A stretch of 64,000 nt of DNA from sequence record PZ445440.1; one strand, 5' to 3'. The position numbers and the translations under genes were made by a program. Source of the DNA: a phage. Shown here in pieces: positions 1 to 33,496 of the stretch. The notes below the pieces were generated by a model, which saw nothing but the letters and a program-made list of their open reading frames with translations, searched no databases and was not told the origin of the DNA. Position 1 is the stretch's first letter. Each line of letters opens with the position of its first letter.

Positions 1-315
1 TGACCAAAGATACTGAACATAATCCTGAATAGCTTTCTTCTTCCACTCAACTAGTTCTCTTTTTGAACCAGGATTTATCGTGTTGAGTGTATAGTTAAAG
101 CAAATACCTAATTCGTTACAACGTTTAACGTAATCTTCTAACATCTTTTTGTCAACGTCAGGAAGCCTAAAATCAGGTCTGGCTGCTACAAAAGCCATTT
201 CTCTTGTAGAGCCGTATACTTCATTTATCAAGCTATTAGGATAAGTTTTATTGAGCTCTACGATTTTATCAAGAAGAGCTAAATCAAAATTCGTTCCGAT
301 TTTAAAAGTATTCAT
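1..315 (-). CDS. hypothetical protein, N-terminal 105 aa only (gene runs past window start); distal member of the sugar-nucleotide cluster
   Basis: ATG at 315 on minus strand, open to position 1 (MNTFKIGTNFDLALLDKIVELNKTYPNSLINEVYGSTRE...); absent from ORF track because truncated; no family recognised. Confidence 0.4.
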   Translation of the reverse strand, partial: MNTFKIGTNFDLALLDKIVELNKTYPNSLINEVYGSTREMAFVAARPDFRLPDVDKKMLEDYVKRCNELGICFNYTLNTINPGSKRELVEWKKKAIQDYVQYLWS

Positions 316-371
316 TTTTTTGCATCTCGCGTTAATTGATGCGATGGTTTTTGCAGGTCTTACTTAAATTA

Positions 372-758
372 TTATAGATTCGGTTTATATGATTTAAATG
401 TTTCGAATTCGCCTTTATTCATAAGAGCTTTGAATTCGTCAGGACGCATAGCTTTGTCGTCGATAATCCAATCATATACTGGTTTATGTGTTAGCAAATT
501 ATGGTACTTCAATCCAATGTTTGCTAAGTTCTGAATCAGACTTGGGAGAATGTCGATTGCTATACGACCAGGACCTACTGACTTCATACCGCGAGCAGTG
601 TAAAGCGTTATGGTATGCCCTGCATCATACAGGGCATTAATGGCAGACACCATTTCGACGTCTGGTTTGAAGTTCACATAATCACGGTTGTTATTCCACT
701 CTGTTATACAATCATCGACATCAAAACAAAGATTAAGCATGTTTTCTACACGGTGCAT
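372..758 (-). CDS. small HAD-superfamily phosphatase-like protein
   Basis: LNLCFDVDDCITEW (HAD motif I DxD), TLYTARG, HKP..IIDDK; ATG at 758 overlaps upstream stop (TAATG). Confidence 0.5.
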   Translation of the reverse strand: MHRVENMLNLCFDVDDCITEWNNNRDYVNFKPDVEMVSAINALYDAGHTITLYTARGMKSVGPGRIAIDILPSLIQNLANIGLKYHNLLTHKPVYDWIIDDKAMRPDEFKALMNKGEFETFKSYKPNL

Positions 759-2443
759 TAGATTCGTTCCCATTGATGAGTGATATCGCCACCGATTGGA
801 CGATAGGAAACACCAGTTTCTTTATCAGTTAGTACCCATTTACCAGGATTTTTTGTAATAAGAGTAGCCGTTACAGGTTCTGCTACGTCATAACTAATAG
901 AGCCGTCTTGAAGTACACGGCCCATGTTACGTAATTGCTTAGTCAGAAGTTCCATACCTTTATAATATGCGGCTACCGCTTTAAGTGGATTATTCTTGAA
1001 ATAACCACCTAATGCAATCCAGATAATTGCCACCGCCAAATGATGATACTCGTTAAACGAACTCATCTTTCCATATTTGTAAATTAATGGATTGATGTTA
1101 ATAGTCACATTACAAGTTGTTTCATCAATAGTAAACTGTCCCCAGGTCGGATTAGCATTGAATTCATCATAACCTGAAACAGCGTAAAGCACTTTAGCTT
1201 CATCGTACAATTTTGGCCCGTAAATCTTGGTTTCACCAAAATATCCACGAGGGTCGATAAACTTGACTTCGCCATTATCAGTAATCATAGTATTACTGAA
1301 GTTCGGGTCACCATGAATAACAGAGTACTGTCCCTGAGAACGGTTATGATAACGAATAAGGTGTTCTAAAGCTTGTTTCAACATTGGCTTCAGACGTCCA
1401 ATCTTAGTGTAGTTCACATGTGTGATTTTACCAAATGAATCAATCAATGGTTGAATGCTTTCACAACGATCAATAACTTTCGTATAGAATTCTTTAGTGA
1501 AATCACGACGGACAGTTTCAGGACTTACAAAATAAGTGTCTGTGCTGAATTTCAGTGCATCTAAAATTGCATCAACAATTTGTGGACGAGCAAGACTTGA
1601 TTTGGATTTAATATATTCAAATGCCGGCTTACCTTTAATGCGTTCCATTTCAAAGTTATTTTCATTAACAGAAACTAACTGAGGAACTGAATCTGATTTC
1701 ACTTTCAAGTACCACGAAATCTCATCTTTCTGAAGAGCTCGACCCTGTTCGGTTAATGCGAATTTAGTTACAGTTTCTTCACCAATTTCAACTGCATTAA
1801 AACTACGATTAAGTTCACGAACTTCATGAGCTTTTTCAAGTTTAGGCATATCACCTAAATCAATTAGATTCATAAGCTCTGATTTATTGAATGCGCCGCT
1901 GTAAAGGAATTCTACGAAATCACGTCCTTTGCAGTATTCATGAATTTCCTCATCAGTAGAACCCATATAGAATTCCCAGTCTTTGAACTGATAAATTCCT
2001 ACAACATTACCGCCTGTTGCACCTACATTAGTGATATTTTCACCGTCGAAATTATATCGACATTCGTCACCCTTAACATAGATTGCGTTAACATTCCAAG
2101 ACCATGAACCAAAATCAGGAATAATATCACACCAGTTAACAATTACGTTATGGCCGTCTAAATCTTTGTGTAATTTAGCAAGAGCATAAGCAGAACCATA
2201 CGCTTCATCAACTGTACGAATAGTCACATTGAACCCTTCTTGCTCACAATAAGCTCGAACAGTTTCAGCAAATTTTGAATGAACTACTACAATAATTTCA
2301 TCTGCGCCAAGGTCAGAATAAATTGTATACAAATTGCTCAGAATAGTGTCTTGTTTATAGTTAACAAGCACCTTAGGAATATGATGCGTTATTGGATACA
2401 AACGAGTTGCCAGTCCAGCACCAAGAATAACAGCTTTTTTCAT
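758..2443 (-). CDS. bifunctional sugar-1-phosphate nucleotidyltransferase (N-term) / APH-type anomeric sugar kinase (C-term)
   Basis: N-term MKKAVILGAGLATRLYPIT matches GxGxRLxPxT of RmlA/GlmU-type pyrophosphorylases; C-term VIHGDPNFSNTMI..FIDPRG matches HGDxxxxN and DxG of aminoglycoside/choline-kinase fold. Confidence 0.75.
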   Translation of the reverse strand: MKKAVILGAGLATRLYPITHHIPKVLVNYKQDTILSNLYTIYSDLGADEIIVVVHSKFAETVRAYCEQEGFNVTIRTVDEAYGSAYALAKLHKDLDGHNVIVNWCDIIPDFGSWSWNVNAIYVKGDECRYNFDGENITNVGATGGNVVGIYQFKDWEFYMGSTDEEIHEYCKGRDFVEFLYSGAFNKSELMNLIDLGDMPKLEKAHEVRELNRSFNAVEIGEETVTKFALTEQGRALQKDEISWYLKVKSDSVPQLVSVNENNFEMERIKGKPAFEYIKSKSSLARPQIVDAILDALKFSTDTYFVSPETVRRDFTKEFYTKVIDRCESIQPLIDSFGKITHVNYTKIGRLKPMLKQALEHLIRYHNRSQGQYSVIHGDPNFSNTMITDNGEVKFIDPRGYFGETKIYGPKLYDEAKVLYAVSGYDEFNANPTWGQFTIDETTCNVTININPLIYKYGKMSSFNEYHHLAVAIIWIALGGYFKNNPLKAVAAYYKGMELLTKQLRNMGRVLQDGSISYDVAEPVTATLITKNPGKWVLTDKETGVSYRPIGGDITHQWERI

Positions 2444-2484
2444 GTTGTGGTCCTCATTGGTAAGTAGAAGTATTGTACACTATT

Positions 2485-2628
2485 CTAGTTAAAGCATTCA
2501 TACTTCGCTTGTAGTCCAATCATAATCCATCCAATTACAAGTGTTGGAATCATTACTGGAGCCGTTAAGCTCCAGTAGATAGTCATGACAAGCATCAATA
2601 GTAAAAGTCCTATTGTTATTGTTTTCAT
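2485..2628 (-). CDS. small hydrophobic protein (47 aa)
   Basis: hand translation MKTITIGLLLLMLVMTIYWSLTAPVMIPTLVIGWIMIGLQAKYECFN; ATGA overlap with upstream SIS gene stop. Confidence 0.35.
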   Translation of the reverse strand: MKTITIGLLLLMLVMTIYWSLTAPVMIPTLVIGWIMIGLQAKYECFN

Positions 2629-3260
2629 TGTTCGCCTCGTAACATGGCACCTAGTGCGCCGCCTGGATGGAACTTAAGGAAATCATTAGAGGTAAATCCA
2701 CGTTCAGACGAAAGGTTGATAGCGAACGTATCGATAAGCGCTAACAACAATGTAGTAGACATTGTCGGAGCTAAAGAGTTCTCGTCAACTTCTACCGCGA
2801 TACCGGTACAGAACGTATAATCAAAAAGAGCTTCGTATTCTTGTGGAATGTCAGGGTTACAATGTAACAGAATCTGTTTAACCTGAGGACGAATCATACG
2901 AAGATGTTTAGCAACACCTATCATTTCTTCAGTCTTACCAGAACGACTGATGTGAACTAATACATCATTAGGTGCAATAAATCCTGCGTCGCCATGAGAA
3001 TAATGCCCGGTGTTCAAGTACATACTCGGGATACCTAGTGAAGCAAAAGTCTCGGAAGCTTTAGTTGCGATATTAGCATTCTTACCAACACCTGTAATAA
3101 TTACACGACTTTCGTAATTACTCAGTCCAGGGCGACGAAGAGTTTCAAGAATAGCATTATATCGGGCAGGGTTTTGACTAATTATTTTAGCCATAGTGGC
3201 AAGAGATGAAGCTTGTTTTACGATTGCGTCAATAGCGATAGTGATTGGTGTAGTTTTCAT
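2625..3260 (-). CDS. SIS-domain sugar-phosphate isomerase, KdsD/GutQ (arabinose-5-phosphate isomerase)-like, no CBS domains
   Basis: ITGVGKNANIATKASETFASLGIPS...HGDAG...ISRSGKTEE and LAPTMSTT...FHPGGALG align with E. coli KdsD SIS domain from memory. Confidence 0.8.
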   Translation of the reverse strand: MKTTPITIAIDAIVKQASSLATMAKIISQNPARYNAILETLRRPGLSNYESRVIITGVGKNANIATKASETFASLGIPSMYLNTGHYSHGDAGFIAPNDVLVHISRSGKTEEMIGVAKHLRMIRPQVKQILLHCNPDIPQEYEALFDYTFCTGIAVEVDENSLAPTMSTTLLLALIDTFAINLSSERGFTSNDFLKFHPGGALGAMLRGEQ

Positions 3261-31382: not shown

Positions 31383-31964
31383 TTATAACAACCCTGTCAA
31401 ATCGTTCCAATGCTTCCGGCATAATGACACATATCTATCGGTATCACCAATTTCAATTTGACTGCCATCTGTAATTGGAAGTCCGTCTTCCGTGACTCTA
31501 GCTACCATTGTGGCCTTTTTACCACAATGACAGACACCTTTAAGTTCAACAAGCTTATCGGCAATAGCCATTAATGCTTGAGAACCTTCAAATAGATTAC
31601 CTTTAAAATCTGTTCGTAGTCCGTATGCCATTACCGGCACATTGTATACGTCAACAATACGACTAAGTTGATACACCTTTTCAGTAGTTAAGAACTGAGC
31701 TTCGTCAACAAATACACAGTGAATATCCTTTTGTGCTGCAGCCCATTTATAGAATTCAAAGATATCCATGTCTTTTGTAATTATATTGGCGTCCTGACGA
31801 ATACCAATACGAGAGACTATTTCACCTTTTGAATCACGAGTATCAATAGCCGGTTTAAGAACTAATACACCCATGCCACGTTCTTTATAGTTATGTGCGG
31901 CAGTAAGTAATGAAGCAGACTTACCAGCGTTCATAGCGGCATATGTAAAAATTAAACTAGCCAT
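31383..31964 (-). CDS. tk: thymidine kinase
   Basis: 193 aa, P-loop MNAGKS, VDEAQF, C-terminal CxxC...C...H zinc site. Confidence 0.95.
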   Translation of the reverse strand: MASLIFTYAAMNAGKSASLLTAAHNYKERGMGVLVLKPAIDTRDSKGEIVSRIGIRQDANIITKDMDIFEFYKWAAAQKDIHCVFVDEAQFLTTEKVYQLSRIVDVYNVPVMAYGLRTDFKGNLFEGSQALMAIADKLVELKGVCHCGKKATMVARVTEDGLPITDGSQIEIGDTDRYVSLCRKHWNDLTGLL

Positions 31965-31973
31965 AAGAGTCCC

Positions 31974-32156
31974 TTATAGTGAATTCACGTAGTCAATGAG
32001 TTCTTGTTCTTTCCTGTCAAATGATTCCAACAATGCTTGATATTCTTCATCTGTTAAAGGAGCATATTCATCATACGCATTGGTGGCCGCTTGCTCATCC
32101 AATAGGTCGTGGATAAGTTCGAACAGTTTAGTTTTCTCTTCTTTAGTCAATTTCAT
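31974..32156 (-). CDS. hypothetical acidic protein
   Basis: track ORF. Confidence 0.5.
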   Translation of the reverse strand: MKLTKEEKTKLFELIHDLLDEQAATNAYDEYAPLTDEEYQALLESFDRKEQELIDYVNSL

Positions 32157-32647
32157 TTAGGTTCCCAATCAACAATCACAATTTCTAGTTTAGTGGAATA
32201 CGTATCTAAAATCTCTTCGATGACATCCCAGTTTCCACCACCAATACCTGCACCAATTCTTGGCATATAAATTACAGGCTTTGTTATCTTATTCTTTCCG
32301 AATTCATTTAATTCTATTATACAATTCATTAAAGCATAGTACTCAAAATTAGGTCCAGGCTCAAACTGTGTATAAAGATTAAAGCAATAAGCTTTATGGG
32401 TCTTAAAATATTTTTCATAAACCGAATAAGTCCCGAGTTTAGACTCGTCTCCGAATTCGGTTTGAAGTTTATCGGCTTCCAGAATTTTTGGATAAGCCTT
32501 TGCTAATTGTCCTGCTACACCGGCACCCATTGTATGAAAACAATTACACCCATGAGCAATATTATTACCTTTAGAAAACAGGGCGACAATATCGCCCTTG
32601 ATATAGTTTTTAATCACTTGCTGCAAGTCCTCTAGTATAAGAGTCAA
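32153..32647 (-). CDS. macrodomain protein, TARG1/OARD1/DarG-like
   Basis: KGDIVALFSKGNNIAHGCNCFHTMGAGVAGQ and YMPRIGAGIGGGNW parallel human OARD1 GDLF..SLAHCISEDCRMGAGIA and SMPRIGCGLDRLQW from memory. Confidence 0.6.
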   Translation of the reverse strand: MTLILEDLQQVIKNYIKGDIVALFSKGNNIAHGCNCFHTMGAGVAGQLAKAYPKILEADKLQTEFGDESKLGTYSVYEKYFKTHKAYCFNLYTQFEPGPNFEYYALMNCIIELNEFGKNKITKPVIYMPRIGAGIGGGNWDVIEEILDTYSTKLEIVIVDWEPK

Positions 32648-32957
32648 CTAGACGGTCCACCATAGAATTGCATGCTGCCTTATCTTTAGGTTCCGCCACC
32701 GAGCATTCTAATATTTGCCATTTTTTATGATATCGTTTAATTAAGGTAGACGCCTTGAACCTACTAGACGCCCCATCTTTTTCTCCGTCTTTATATGCGT
32801 ATAACAATTTTTGTGAAAAATCTACTTTACACTCTTGACTTTTACCACAATAATCAGACGCCGTTCTGTTTGTATACTCCGTTACATCAGTATATGTAGT
32901 ATTAGCAAGAGCGTTAAATGAAACCAAGCCAACTATTAAAGCCAACATTTTGGTCAT
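32610..32957 (-). CDS. secreted small protein (signal peptide, 4 Cys)
   Basis: N-terminal hydrophobic leader MTKMLALIVGLVSFNALA; overlaps macro gene 3' end by 38 nt. Confidence 0.5.
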   Translation of the reverse strand: MTKMLALIVGLVSFNALANTTYTDVTEYTNRTASDYCGKSQECKVDFSQKLLYAYKDGEKDGASSRFKASTLIKRYHKKWQILECSVAEPKDKAACNSMVDRLVDSYTRGLAASD

Positions 32958-33496
32958 TCTTTTATTTCCAGTAGTTTATTTGATTTAAGGTAATTAGCCT
33001 TTTCTAGGACTTCAGAAGCATATTTACTTCCAGCACTTGTCTTCCATCCAGCATTATATGAGGATATAGCTTTTCTTATATCCCCGTTATGTATATTTAA
33101 CCAATAAGAAAATTCGATATAAGCCCATCTGGCTGAATTAGACCGCTTAGATAGCATTTTCTTAATTTGGGCATCAGTCATATTATAACCAAGCTGGTTA
33201 ATTCTTGCCCTCATTGTTGGTAGATAATTTTGGAACATTCCATACGCATGGTGACCTTTCTTATCTTTAAGATTAATACCGGCAGATGATTCCTGCCATA
33301 GTATTGCGGCCATTATGTATCCAAGTCCTTTCTTATGCATATTTTCATGCGTTTTAAATTTTCCGTCCTTAGAAAACTGTTCCCCAAACTGATAAGCATA
33401 ATTCAAGTTATCGAGTTGGACATTACTAAAAGTATGCTCGGAGCTATGTGCTGATAATGAAAGAGCAAATAGACCAGCGAGTAGTGCTTTTCTCAT
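32954..33496 (-). CDS. periplasmic lytic-transglycosylase-like protein (signal peptide + SLT-like)
   Basis: signal peptide MRKALLAGLFALSLSAHS; WQESSAG...YGMFQ resembles SLT catalytic E-S and GLMQ motifs. Confidence 0.5.
   Translation of the reverse strand: MRKALLAGLFALSLSAHSSEHTFSNVQLDNLNYAYQFGEQFSKDGKFKTHENMHKKGLGYIMAAILWQESSAGINLKDKKGHHAYGMFQNYLPTMRARINQLGYNMTDAQIKKMLSKRSNSARWAYIEFSYWLNIHNGDIRKAISSYNAGWKTSAGSKYASEVLEKANYLKSNKLLEIKE

Follow-up and report, generated by a model that had tools for sequence, protein, structure and literature searches.

The subject of this analysis is a gene on the minus strand of a 64,000-nucleotide stretch of phage DNA (sequence record PZ445440.1, hereafter the window). 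A 5-kb part of the window was tested and proved 100% identical to Escherichia phage ChristianSchoenbein (BASEL phage Bas46, a Mosigvirus; accession MZ501056.1). The gene, at positions 32153..32617, is the Mosigvirus orthologue of T4 tk.4, now called adfM (anti-DarT factor Macrodomain); its product is hereafter referred to as Bas46 Tk.4. It is quite probable that this ALC1/TARG1-like macrodomain removes DarT2 marks from phage DNA, likely by a glutamine-dependent route of the SCO6735 kind. The anti-DarT role of tk.4 is not new, having been published for the T4 orthologue. What goes beyond the literature found, in which no biochemistry of the T-even type was located, is a corrected start codon and the glutamine-type, lysine-less active site of T-even AdfM, as opposed to the lysine-type site of PhiKZ AdfM.

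Orthology, fold and class of Bas46 Tk.4

The 154-residue Bas46 protein aligns with T4 Tk.4 (NP_049723, 155 residues) without gaps, 128 of 153 positions being identical (84%, E=2e-102). The Pfam Macro profile (PF01661) was matched with 27.4 bits against a gathering cutoff of 22, over residues 32-146 of a longer, 164-residue form of the open reading frame (ORF) and profile positions 2-117 of 118. PHROG 335 was matched with E=3e-66, and tblastn matches were found in 2793 of 50,697 phage records. An alignment-based AlphaFold2 model (predicted local distance difference test, pLDDT, 95.2; predicted template modelling score, pTM, 0.90) has the three-layer alpha/beta macro fold. Together these results lie well beyond what chance would give. 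The protein is closer to the ALC1/TARG1-like class, which includes TARG1, DarG, SCO6735/BT1257 and Poa1p, than to MacroD-, macroH2A-, PARG- or viral Mac1-type domains. The values obtained in the fold/class comparison were:

BT1257 (30% identity): 18.3
Yeast Poa1p: 17.9
M. tuberculosis DarG: 17.5
T. africanus DarG: 17.0
TARG1: 16.9
Top macrodomain from any other class: 13.7

The same relatives were retrieved by Foldseek and by a profile search against PDB sequences. An earlier note, made from the sequence of the window, had placed the protein in the TARG1/DarG clade of macrodomains. Assignment to this TARG1/DarG-like (ALC1-like) class is correct: the predicted structure is a macro fold, nearest to ALC1/TARG1-like members.

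The gene lies in an uninterrupted minus-strand ORF (32647 to 32153) that codes for GDIV...IAHGCNCFHTMGAGVAGQ and MPRIGAGIGGGNW. The earlier note had read all of it as a 164-residue protein. The ORF is real, on the minus strand and carries the motifs, but the protein is probably 154 residues long, starting from GTG 32617. The relevant features are:

32153..32617, minus strand: tk.4/adfM orthologue, a 154-residue stand-alone macrodomain, with GTG start 32617-32615 and TGA stop 32155-32153; GenBank coding sequence bas46_0206
32618..32647, minus strand: ten extra codons of the 164-residue ORF (TTG start), within the 3' end of vs and probably untranslated in the macrodomain protein
32628..32633, minus strand: Shine-Dalgarno-like AGAGGA, with the GTG start 10-11 nt downstream

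Orthologue starts, the ribosome-binding site and the GenBank annotation all speak for GTG 32617, and the TTG start at 32647 was therefore rejected. T4 tk.4 has an ATG at the codon exactly matching GTG 32617, and GAGGA is present upstream in both phages. Orthologues below about 90% identity give tblastn alignments that begin at residue 8-11 of the 164-residue ORF, and the GenBank start of bas46_0206 is GTG 32617 (154 residues). GTG 32617, not TTG 32647, is thus most likely the true start of the Bas46 tk.4 orthologue.

Annotation of the gene is uneven among the near-identical phage records listed, where it appears as 'hypothetical protein' (bas46_0206), 'phosphatase', 'macro domain protein' or 'T4-like phage protein with Macro domain, Poa1p_like family'; none of these records bears the adfM or an anti-DarT2 name.

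The distribution of tblastn identities is discontinuous, with 225 records at 80-90%, 9 at 60-80% and 2403 below 60%. SHFML-11, EC121 and F13076 have the same vs-tk.4 arrangement as T4, yet their proteins are only ~58% identical to the window protein; F13076 also has the upstream sequence of T4. The pattern suggests that there may be two allele classes of tk.4 among close T4 relatives.

A glutamine replaces the catalytic lysine

The window protein was aligned by MAFFT with T4 Tk.4, TARG1, two DarG macrodomains, PhiKZ gp104, BT1257 and SCO6735. The TARG1 sequence used was checked against PDB 2LGR. An ungapped pairwise HMMER alignment to BT1257 shifts the NLYTQ motif by several residues owing to a difference in loop length, and the multi-reference MAFFT alignment was used instead; it agrees with the published structural comparison that equates SCO6735 Q85 with TARG1 K84 and DarG K80. 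Conservation was counted over 121 family sequences, down to ~39% identity. The following elements of the active site were located:

32510..32560, minus strand: first ADP-ribose-binding loop, residues 20-36, IAHGCNCFHTMGAGVAG; G23 and N25 (codon 32543-32545) invariant and H22 nearly so, with a glycine-rich GAG
32366..32380, minus strand: family signature NLYTQ, residues 80-84; Q84 codon 32366-32368
32225..32272, minus strand: second (diphosphate-binding) loop, residues 116-131, IYMPRIGAGIGGGNWD; G126 at the position of TARG1 D125

All 121 family sequences have Q84, N80, Y82, N25, G23 and G33. Key residues of the first loop are conserved in 120-121 of the 121, and P119, I121, G122, G124 and W130 of the second loop are invariant or nearly so. 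Q84 aligns with the catalytic lysine of TARG1 (K84), DarG (K80 in the T. aquaticus and M. tuberculosis proteins) and PhiKZ gp104 (in its FPTK motif), and also with the essential glutamine of SCO6735, Q85; BT1257 has a glutamine there as well. N25 aligns with SCO6735 N27, DarG N22 and PhiKZ AdfM N23, and the aligned asparagine is needed for activity both in SCO6735 (PMC9411070) and in PhiKZ AdfM (PMC13309987). The earlier note had described motifs parallel to the catalytic and phosphate-binding motifs of TARG1/DarG. The parallel holds for the phosphate-binding motifs, while the catalytic residues (K84/D125 of TARG1, K80 of DarG) are replaced by Q84 and G126.

The mobile loop that follows Q84 is short in 95 of the 121 family members, in which 8 residues separate positions 84 and 93. 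The Tk.4 type would then be a glutamine-type enzyme on a short-loop scaffold, with a loop length as in TARG1 and DarG.

Genetic evidence for an anti-DarT2 function

A saturated transposon library of T4, screened on a DarTG2-expressing host, yielded one significant hit, tk.4, and T4 with a clean knockout of this gene was sensitized to DarTG2 (bioRxiv 10.1101/2025.11.20.689424, November 2025). Among the defenses rexAB, rnlAB, CBASS, DarTG1 and DarTG2, tk.4 was a hit only with DarTG2, and it was dispensable on plain K-12 (bioRxiv 10.1101/2025.11.20.689424). The gene was renamed adfM, and removal of ADP-ribose from DNA was proposed from structural similarity of its product to DarG (bioRxiv 10.1101/2025.11.20.689424). 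T4 lacking both adfA and adfN had been found to remain resistant to DarTG2 (PMC11825919), which predicts a further factor, and tk.4/adfM fills this gap. The earlier note had proposed that the phage gene reverses DarT ADP-ribosylation of thymidine in single-stranded DNA, with a plaque assay of a deletion mutant on DarTG hosts as a check. That assay is in effect the published one for T4 tk.4, and its outcome supports the proposal genetically for an orthologue 84% identical to the Bas46 protein. The Tk.4 protein was also detected in the proteome of T2-infected cells (bioRxiv 10.64898/2026.06.19.733364).

PhiKZ gp104, independently given the name AdfM as well (Cell Reports 2026), strips DarT2-installed ADP-ribose from an oligonucleotide in vitro, and its N23A variant is less active (PMC13309987). 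E. coli is protected from DarT by SCO6735, which hydrolyzes ADP-ribosylated thymidine (dT-ADPr) in DNA faster than DarG or TARG1 and is inactive on the corresponding deoxyguanosine adduct, dG-ADPr (PMC9411070). Substitution Q85A inactivates SCO6735, and N27S, which affects the asparagine locking this glutamine, leaves it nearly inactive; the mechanism proposed for it is independent of lysine and mediated by water (PMC9411070).

Proposed mechanism and alternative explanations

On infection of a DarTG2-carrying host, DarT2 would ADP-ribosylate thymidines in TNTC motifs of single-stranded phage DNA, and replication would be blocked. Bas46 Tk.4 would bind the ADP-ribose through a pair of glycine-rich loops, formed by residues 20-36 and residues 116-131. 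With N25 locking its position, Q84 would orient the distal ribose and water would do the chemistry, as in the lysine-independent route of SCO6735. Hydrolysis of the N-glycosidic ribose-thymine bond would then restore unmodified DNA, so that the macrodomain would act as an orphan enzymatic antitoxin. Such a glutamine route would differ from the lysine-based route of DarG, TARG1 and PhiKZ AdfM. The present analysis establishes orthology, fold and active-site composition, and the published T4 work establishes that the orthologue is required on DarTG2 hosts. We infer enzymatic removal of thymidine-linked ADP-ribose by Bas46 Tk.4, and its glutamine-type mechanism; N25 and Q84 are strictly invariant, and their counterparts are needed for catalysis in SCO6735.

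Several points weigh against this interpretation. In the alignment Bas46 Tk.4 has neither the catalytic lysine of DarG and TARG1 nor the TARG1 aspartate, and it also lacks the mobile loop of SCO6735 and BT1257, which is 5-6 residues longer and carries DNA-binding lysines. It thus fits neither of the characterized active-site architectures completely. The water-mediated mechanism of SCO6735 itself rests on molecular dynamics and mutagenesis (PMC9411070). The evidence on DarTG2 consists of genetic data from a preprint and concerns T4, not Bas46, and the literature search found no biochemical assays of any Tk.4-type protein.

Four other functions were weighed against removal of DarT2 marks from DNA, and all are weakened by the fact that the T4 mutant phenotype is specific to DarTG2 and the SCO6735-type catalytic residues are invariant. 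As side activities they are conceivable. The protein could hydrolyze a small-molecule derivative of ADP-ribose instead of acting on DNA, either as a phosphatase of ADP-ribose-1''-phosphate (Appr1p) like Poa1p or as a deacetylase of O-acetyl-ADP-ribose (OAADPr), and so clear by-products of RNA repair or of sirtuins. The Poa1p-like phosphatase idea is the source of the old 'phosphatase' annotation. We regard this function as unlikely, since the only phenotype reported for an orthologue, that in T4, is DarTG2-specific, the position of Poa1p F152 is occupied by Gly or Ala in the Tk.4 family, and Poa1p has a serine where the family has its invariant glutamine. Weak in vitro Appr1p phosphatase activity without physiological meaning is, moreover, common to many macrodomains. 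To our knowledge, T4 RNA repair (Pnk/Rnl1) involves no 2'-phosphate junction, so that no ADP-ribose cyclic phosphate (Appr>p) is made, which also counts against a Poa1p-like role. An eraser of protein ADP-ribosylation, acting on phage Alt/ModA/ModB marks as a timing switch or on marks set by host ADP-ribosyltransferase defenses, would be still less expected. The Alt and Mod enzymes modify arginine, which counts against such a role, and cleavage of the arginine linkage by ALC1-like macrodomains is shown in no cited work. T-even phages do encode several ADP-ribosyltransferases (PMC9503650), and TARG1 and SCO6735, members of the same class, also hydrolyze Glu/Asp-linked protein ADP-ribose (PMC9411070); when DNA and protein substrates compete, however, SCO6735 shows a strong preference for DNA (PMC9411070), and in the T4 screen tk.4 was dispensable on plain K-12 and scored with DarTG2 alone of the five defenses.

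Equally little weight can be given to reversal of ADP-ribosylation of RNA bases (uracil-ADPr, U-ADPr) or RNA ends, besides or instead of DNA, as a response to RNA-targeting ADP-ribosyltransferase defenses. U-ADPr on single-stranded RNA is hydrolyzed by TARG1, DarG and SCO6735, by the latter efficiently (PMC13036486), and one defense of this kind against T-even phages is CmdTAC (PMC11618068). T-even phages are described as robustly restricted by CmdTAC (PMC11618068), and since they carry tk.4, the gene does not neutralize it; no bacterial defense that writes U-ADPr was found in the cited literature. Non-catalytic protection is the least probable of the four and would be surprising: here DarT2 would be bound and blocked, as by AdfB, which mimics the antitoxin, or by the DarG C-terminal domain, or ADP-ribosylated DNA or NAD-derived ligands would be sequestered. 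The missing canonical lysine would agree with such a role, and AdfA and AdfB appear to act by direct binding (PMC10760071, PMC11825919). Bas46 Tk.4, however, has no counterpart of the C-terminal DarT-binding domain of DarG (154 residues, corresponding to positions 4-148 of 338 in the DarG model), strict invariance of N25 and Q84, whose counterparts are required for SCO6735 catalysis, points to an enzyme, and the glutamine-type enzyme SCO6735 is a very active hydrolase (PMC9411070).

A wider hypothesis extends removal of DarT2 marks by Bas46 Tk.4 and is, in our estimate, possible but rather doubtful. Tk.4-type AdfM would represent a third active-site architecture in the TARG1-like class (glutamine plus short loop), would have gained its anti-DarT2 function independently of the lysine-type PhiKZ AdfM, and might be a broad eraser of thymine- and uracil-ADPr on DNA and RNA, possibly also of Glu/Asp protein marks. 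Broad erasing is conceivable because Tk.4-type AdfM does not rely on recognition of a toxin. If true, such activity would give T-even phages cover against several ADP-ribosyltransferase defenses beyond DarTG2.

Significance

DarTG is a widespread anti-phage defense, and enzymatic erasers counter it independently of toxin structure. Knowledge of an intact adfM in Bas46 and other Mosigviruses is of help in host-range prediction for DarTG2-positive E. coli, for instance in the choice of therapeutic phages. T-even AdfM lacks the lysine usually quoted for DarG-like enzymes. The name AdfM spans two unrelated lineages, of which only the lysine-type one is characterized biochemically, and results are not transferable from one to the other without a test.

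Genomic neighborhood

The genes surrounding the tk.4 orthologue are listed below.

32610..32957, minus strand: vs orthologue (valyl-tRNA synthetase modifier), upstream neighbor, with 67% identity to T4 Vs
31974..32156, minus strand: 60-residue DUF7438 protein in the position of tk.1-tk.3, downstream neighbor (Pfam DUF7438, E=8e-16)
31383-31964: tk, beyond the DUF7438 ORF (Pfam TK, E=7e-57)
32954-33496, minus strand: vs.1 orthologue, 180 residues, with a signal-peptide-like N-terminus and a sub-threshold Pfam SLT match

The TAA stop of vs (32612-32610) overlaps the GTG start of tk.4 by 8 nt in Bas46, and there is a 4-nt overlap between the tk.4 stop and the start of the DUF7438 ORF. The gene order is that of T4, namely tk, small ORF (the 60-residue DUF7438 protein replacing tk.1-tk.3), tk.4, vs, vs.1 and regB. 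The vs-tk.4-tk arrangement recurs in further Tevenvirinae genera and was seen in F13076, EcS1 and CC31. The earlier note had the macrodomain gene beside tk, a secreted Cys-containing protein and a periplasmic SLT-like protein. The secreted Cys protein is the vs orthologue and tk is indeed nearby, but the DUF7438 ORF separates it from tk.4, and vs.1 matches SLT with 18.8 bits (E=1.3e-3), short of the cutoff of 21.3; 'SLT-like' is to be read as no more than a hint. Around the tk.4 orthologue, 7 promoter-like sites were counted, against 10.1 +/- 3.8 expected from shuffled sequence, i.e. there was no excess of promoter signals.

The vs orthologue has a signal-peptide-like N-terminus (MTKMLALIVGLVSFNALA), four cysteines and no Pfam domain. 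Such secretion-like features are odd for a protein said to modify the cytoplasmic valyl-tRNA synthetase. In T4, vs was the most depleted gene in minimal glucose medium (HIDEN-SEQ preprint).

At the other end of the window, positions 1-3260 of the minus strand carry putative UDP-arabinose biosynthesis genes annotated in the GenBank record. The DNA of RB69-type phages contains arabinosyl-hydroxymethylcytosine. In Bas46 the C of the DarT2 target motif TNTC would then be hypermodified.

A hairpin within tk.4

A search for terminator-like sites identified one further feature, inside the gene itself:

32580..32598, minus strand: GC-rich hairpin with an 8-bp stem and a 3-nt loop, followed by GTTTTCT; codons 7-13 of tk.4

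The hairpin, AGGGCGAT-ATT-GTCGCCCT, has a predicted energy of -13.0 kcal/mol (RNAfold) and requires four specific wobble bases. It is kept in five of eight orthologues, including those of T4, F13076, EcS1 and Krischvirus G37-3, and is absent in CC31, Mineola and AB-Navy4. The EcS1 stem contains a compensatory change, AAG/CTG to AAA/TTG (G:C to A:U), and in Krischvirus G37-3 the stem is kept despite a different peptide. The element may serve in attenuation, in mRNA stability or in the binding of Hfq; a stem-loop followed by a U-tail is the classic Hfq-binding module. The tk.4 transcript of T2 was captured with the host small RNA ArcZ on Hfq (bioRxiv 10.64898/2026.06.19.733364). That the hairpin and this capture are connected is speculation.

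Comparison with known systems

Among known systems, T4 Tk.4 is the closest. It shares with the Bas46 protein full-length identity of 84%, nearly the same length (155 and 154 residues), the start position, the neighboring genes and all family-invariant residues. The two differ in phage genus (Tequatrovirus versus Mosigvirus), in start codon (ATG versus GTG in Bas46), in the extent of overlap with vs (4 nt in T4 versus 8 nt) and at position 127, where T4 Tk.4 has K127 and Bas46 has the family consensus G127. The DarTG2 phenotype is known from T4 tk.4 only.

SCO6735 of Streptomyces coelicolor and BT1257 of Bacteroides (PDB 5E3B and 2FG1/2AFC), which form a glutamine-type subclass of the ALC1-like macrodomains, have in common with Bas46 Tk.4 the glutamine at the position of the catalytic lysine and the asparagine that locks it. 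Their overall identity to it is 22-30%, and they are cellular proteins, SOS-regulated in Streptomyces, rather than phage counter-defense factors. DarG (DarG2; PDB 5M3I, 5M31 and 7OMU) has a catalytic lysine in FPTK where Bas46 Tk.4 has LYTQ. DarG also binds DarT through a C-terminal domain and is encoded next to darT; Bas46 Tk.4 has neither feature. Against the NCBIfam DarG equivalog NF048014 the Bas46 protein scores 31 bits, the cutoff being 250 (E=1.5e-7, profile positions 4-148 of 338, i.e. the macro half). Identification as DarG proper was rejected on this score, far under the cutoff, and on the absence of the C-terminal domain, a darT neighbor and the catalytic lysine.

PhiKZ gp104 resembles Bas46 Tk.4 in being a stand-alone phage macrodomain directed against DarTG2, in its name, in the conserved asparagine (N23) and in the glycine-rich loops. 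The identity between the two is ~19% (hhalign), and BLASTP aligns 23 residues only. The PhiKZ protein is of the lysine type (FPTK), is much nearer to DarG (E=9e-25 with the M. tuberculosis protein) and is imported into the phage nucleus of chimalliviruses. Judged by their sequences, the two proteins named AdfM, T4 Tk.4 and PhiKZ gp104, are separate lineages that share a function.

Human TARG1/OARD1 (PDB 4J5S) has a K84/D125 dyad where Bas46 Tk.4 has Q84 and G126, and a serine at the position of the invariant asparagine of the Tk.4 family. A TARG1-type Lys/Asp mechanism was rejected for Bas46 Tk.4 on the basis of the aligned residues Q84 and G126. Yeast Poa1p (PDB 6LFQ), whose substrate is a soluble metabolite, has a serine at the position of Q84 and Phe152 at that of G126. 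Of the residues probed in Poa1p, H23 corresponds to the conserved H22 of Bas46 Tk.4, S30 to T29 and F152 to G126.

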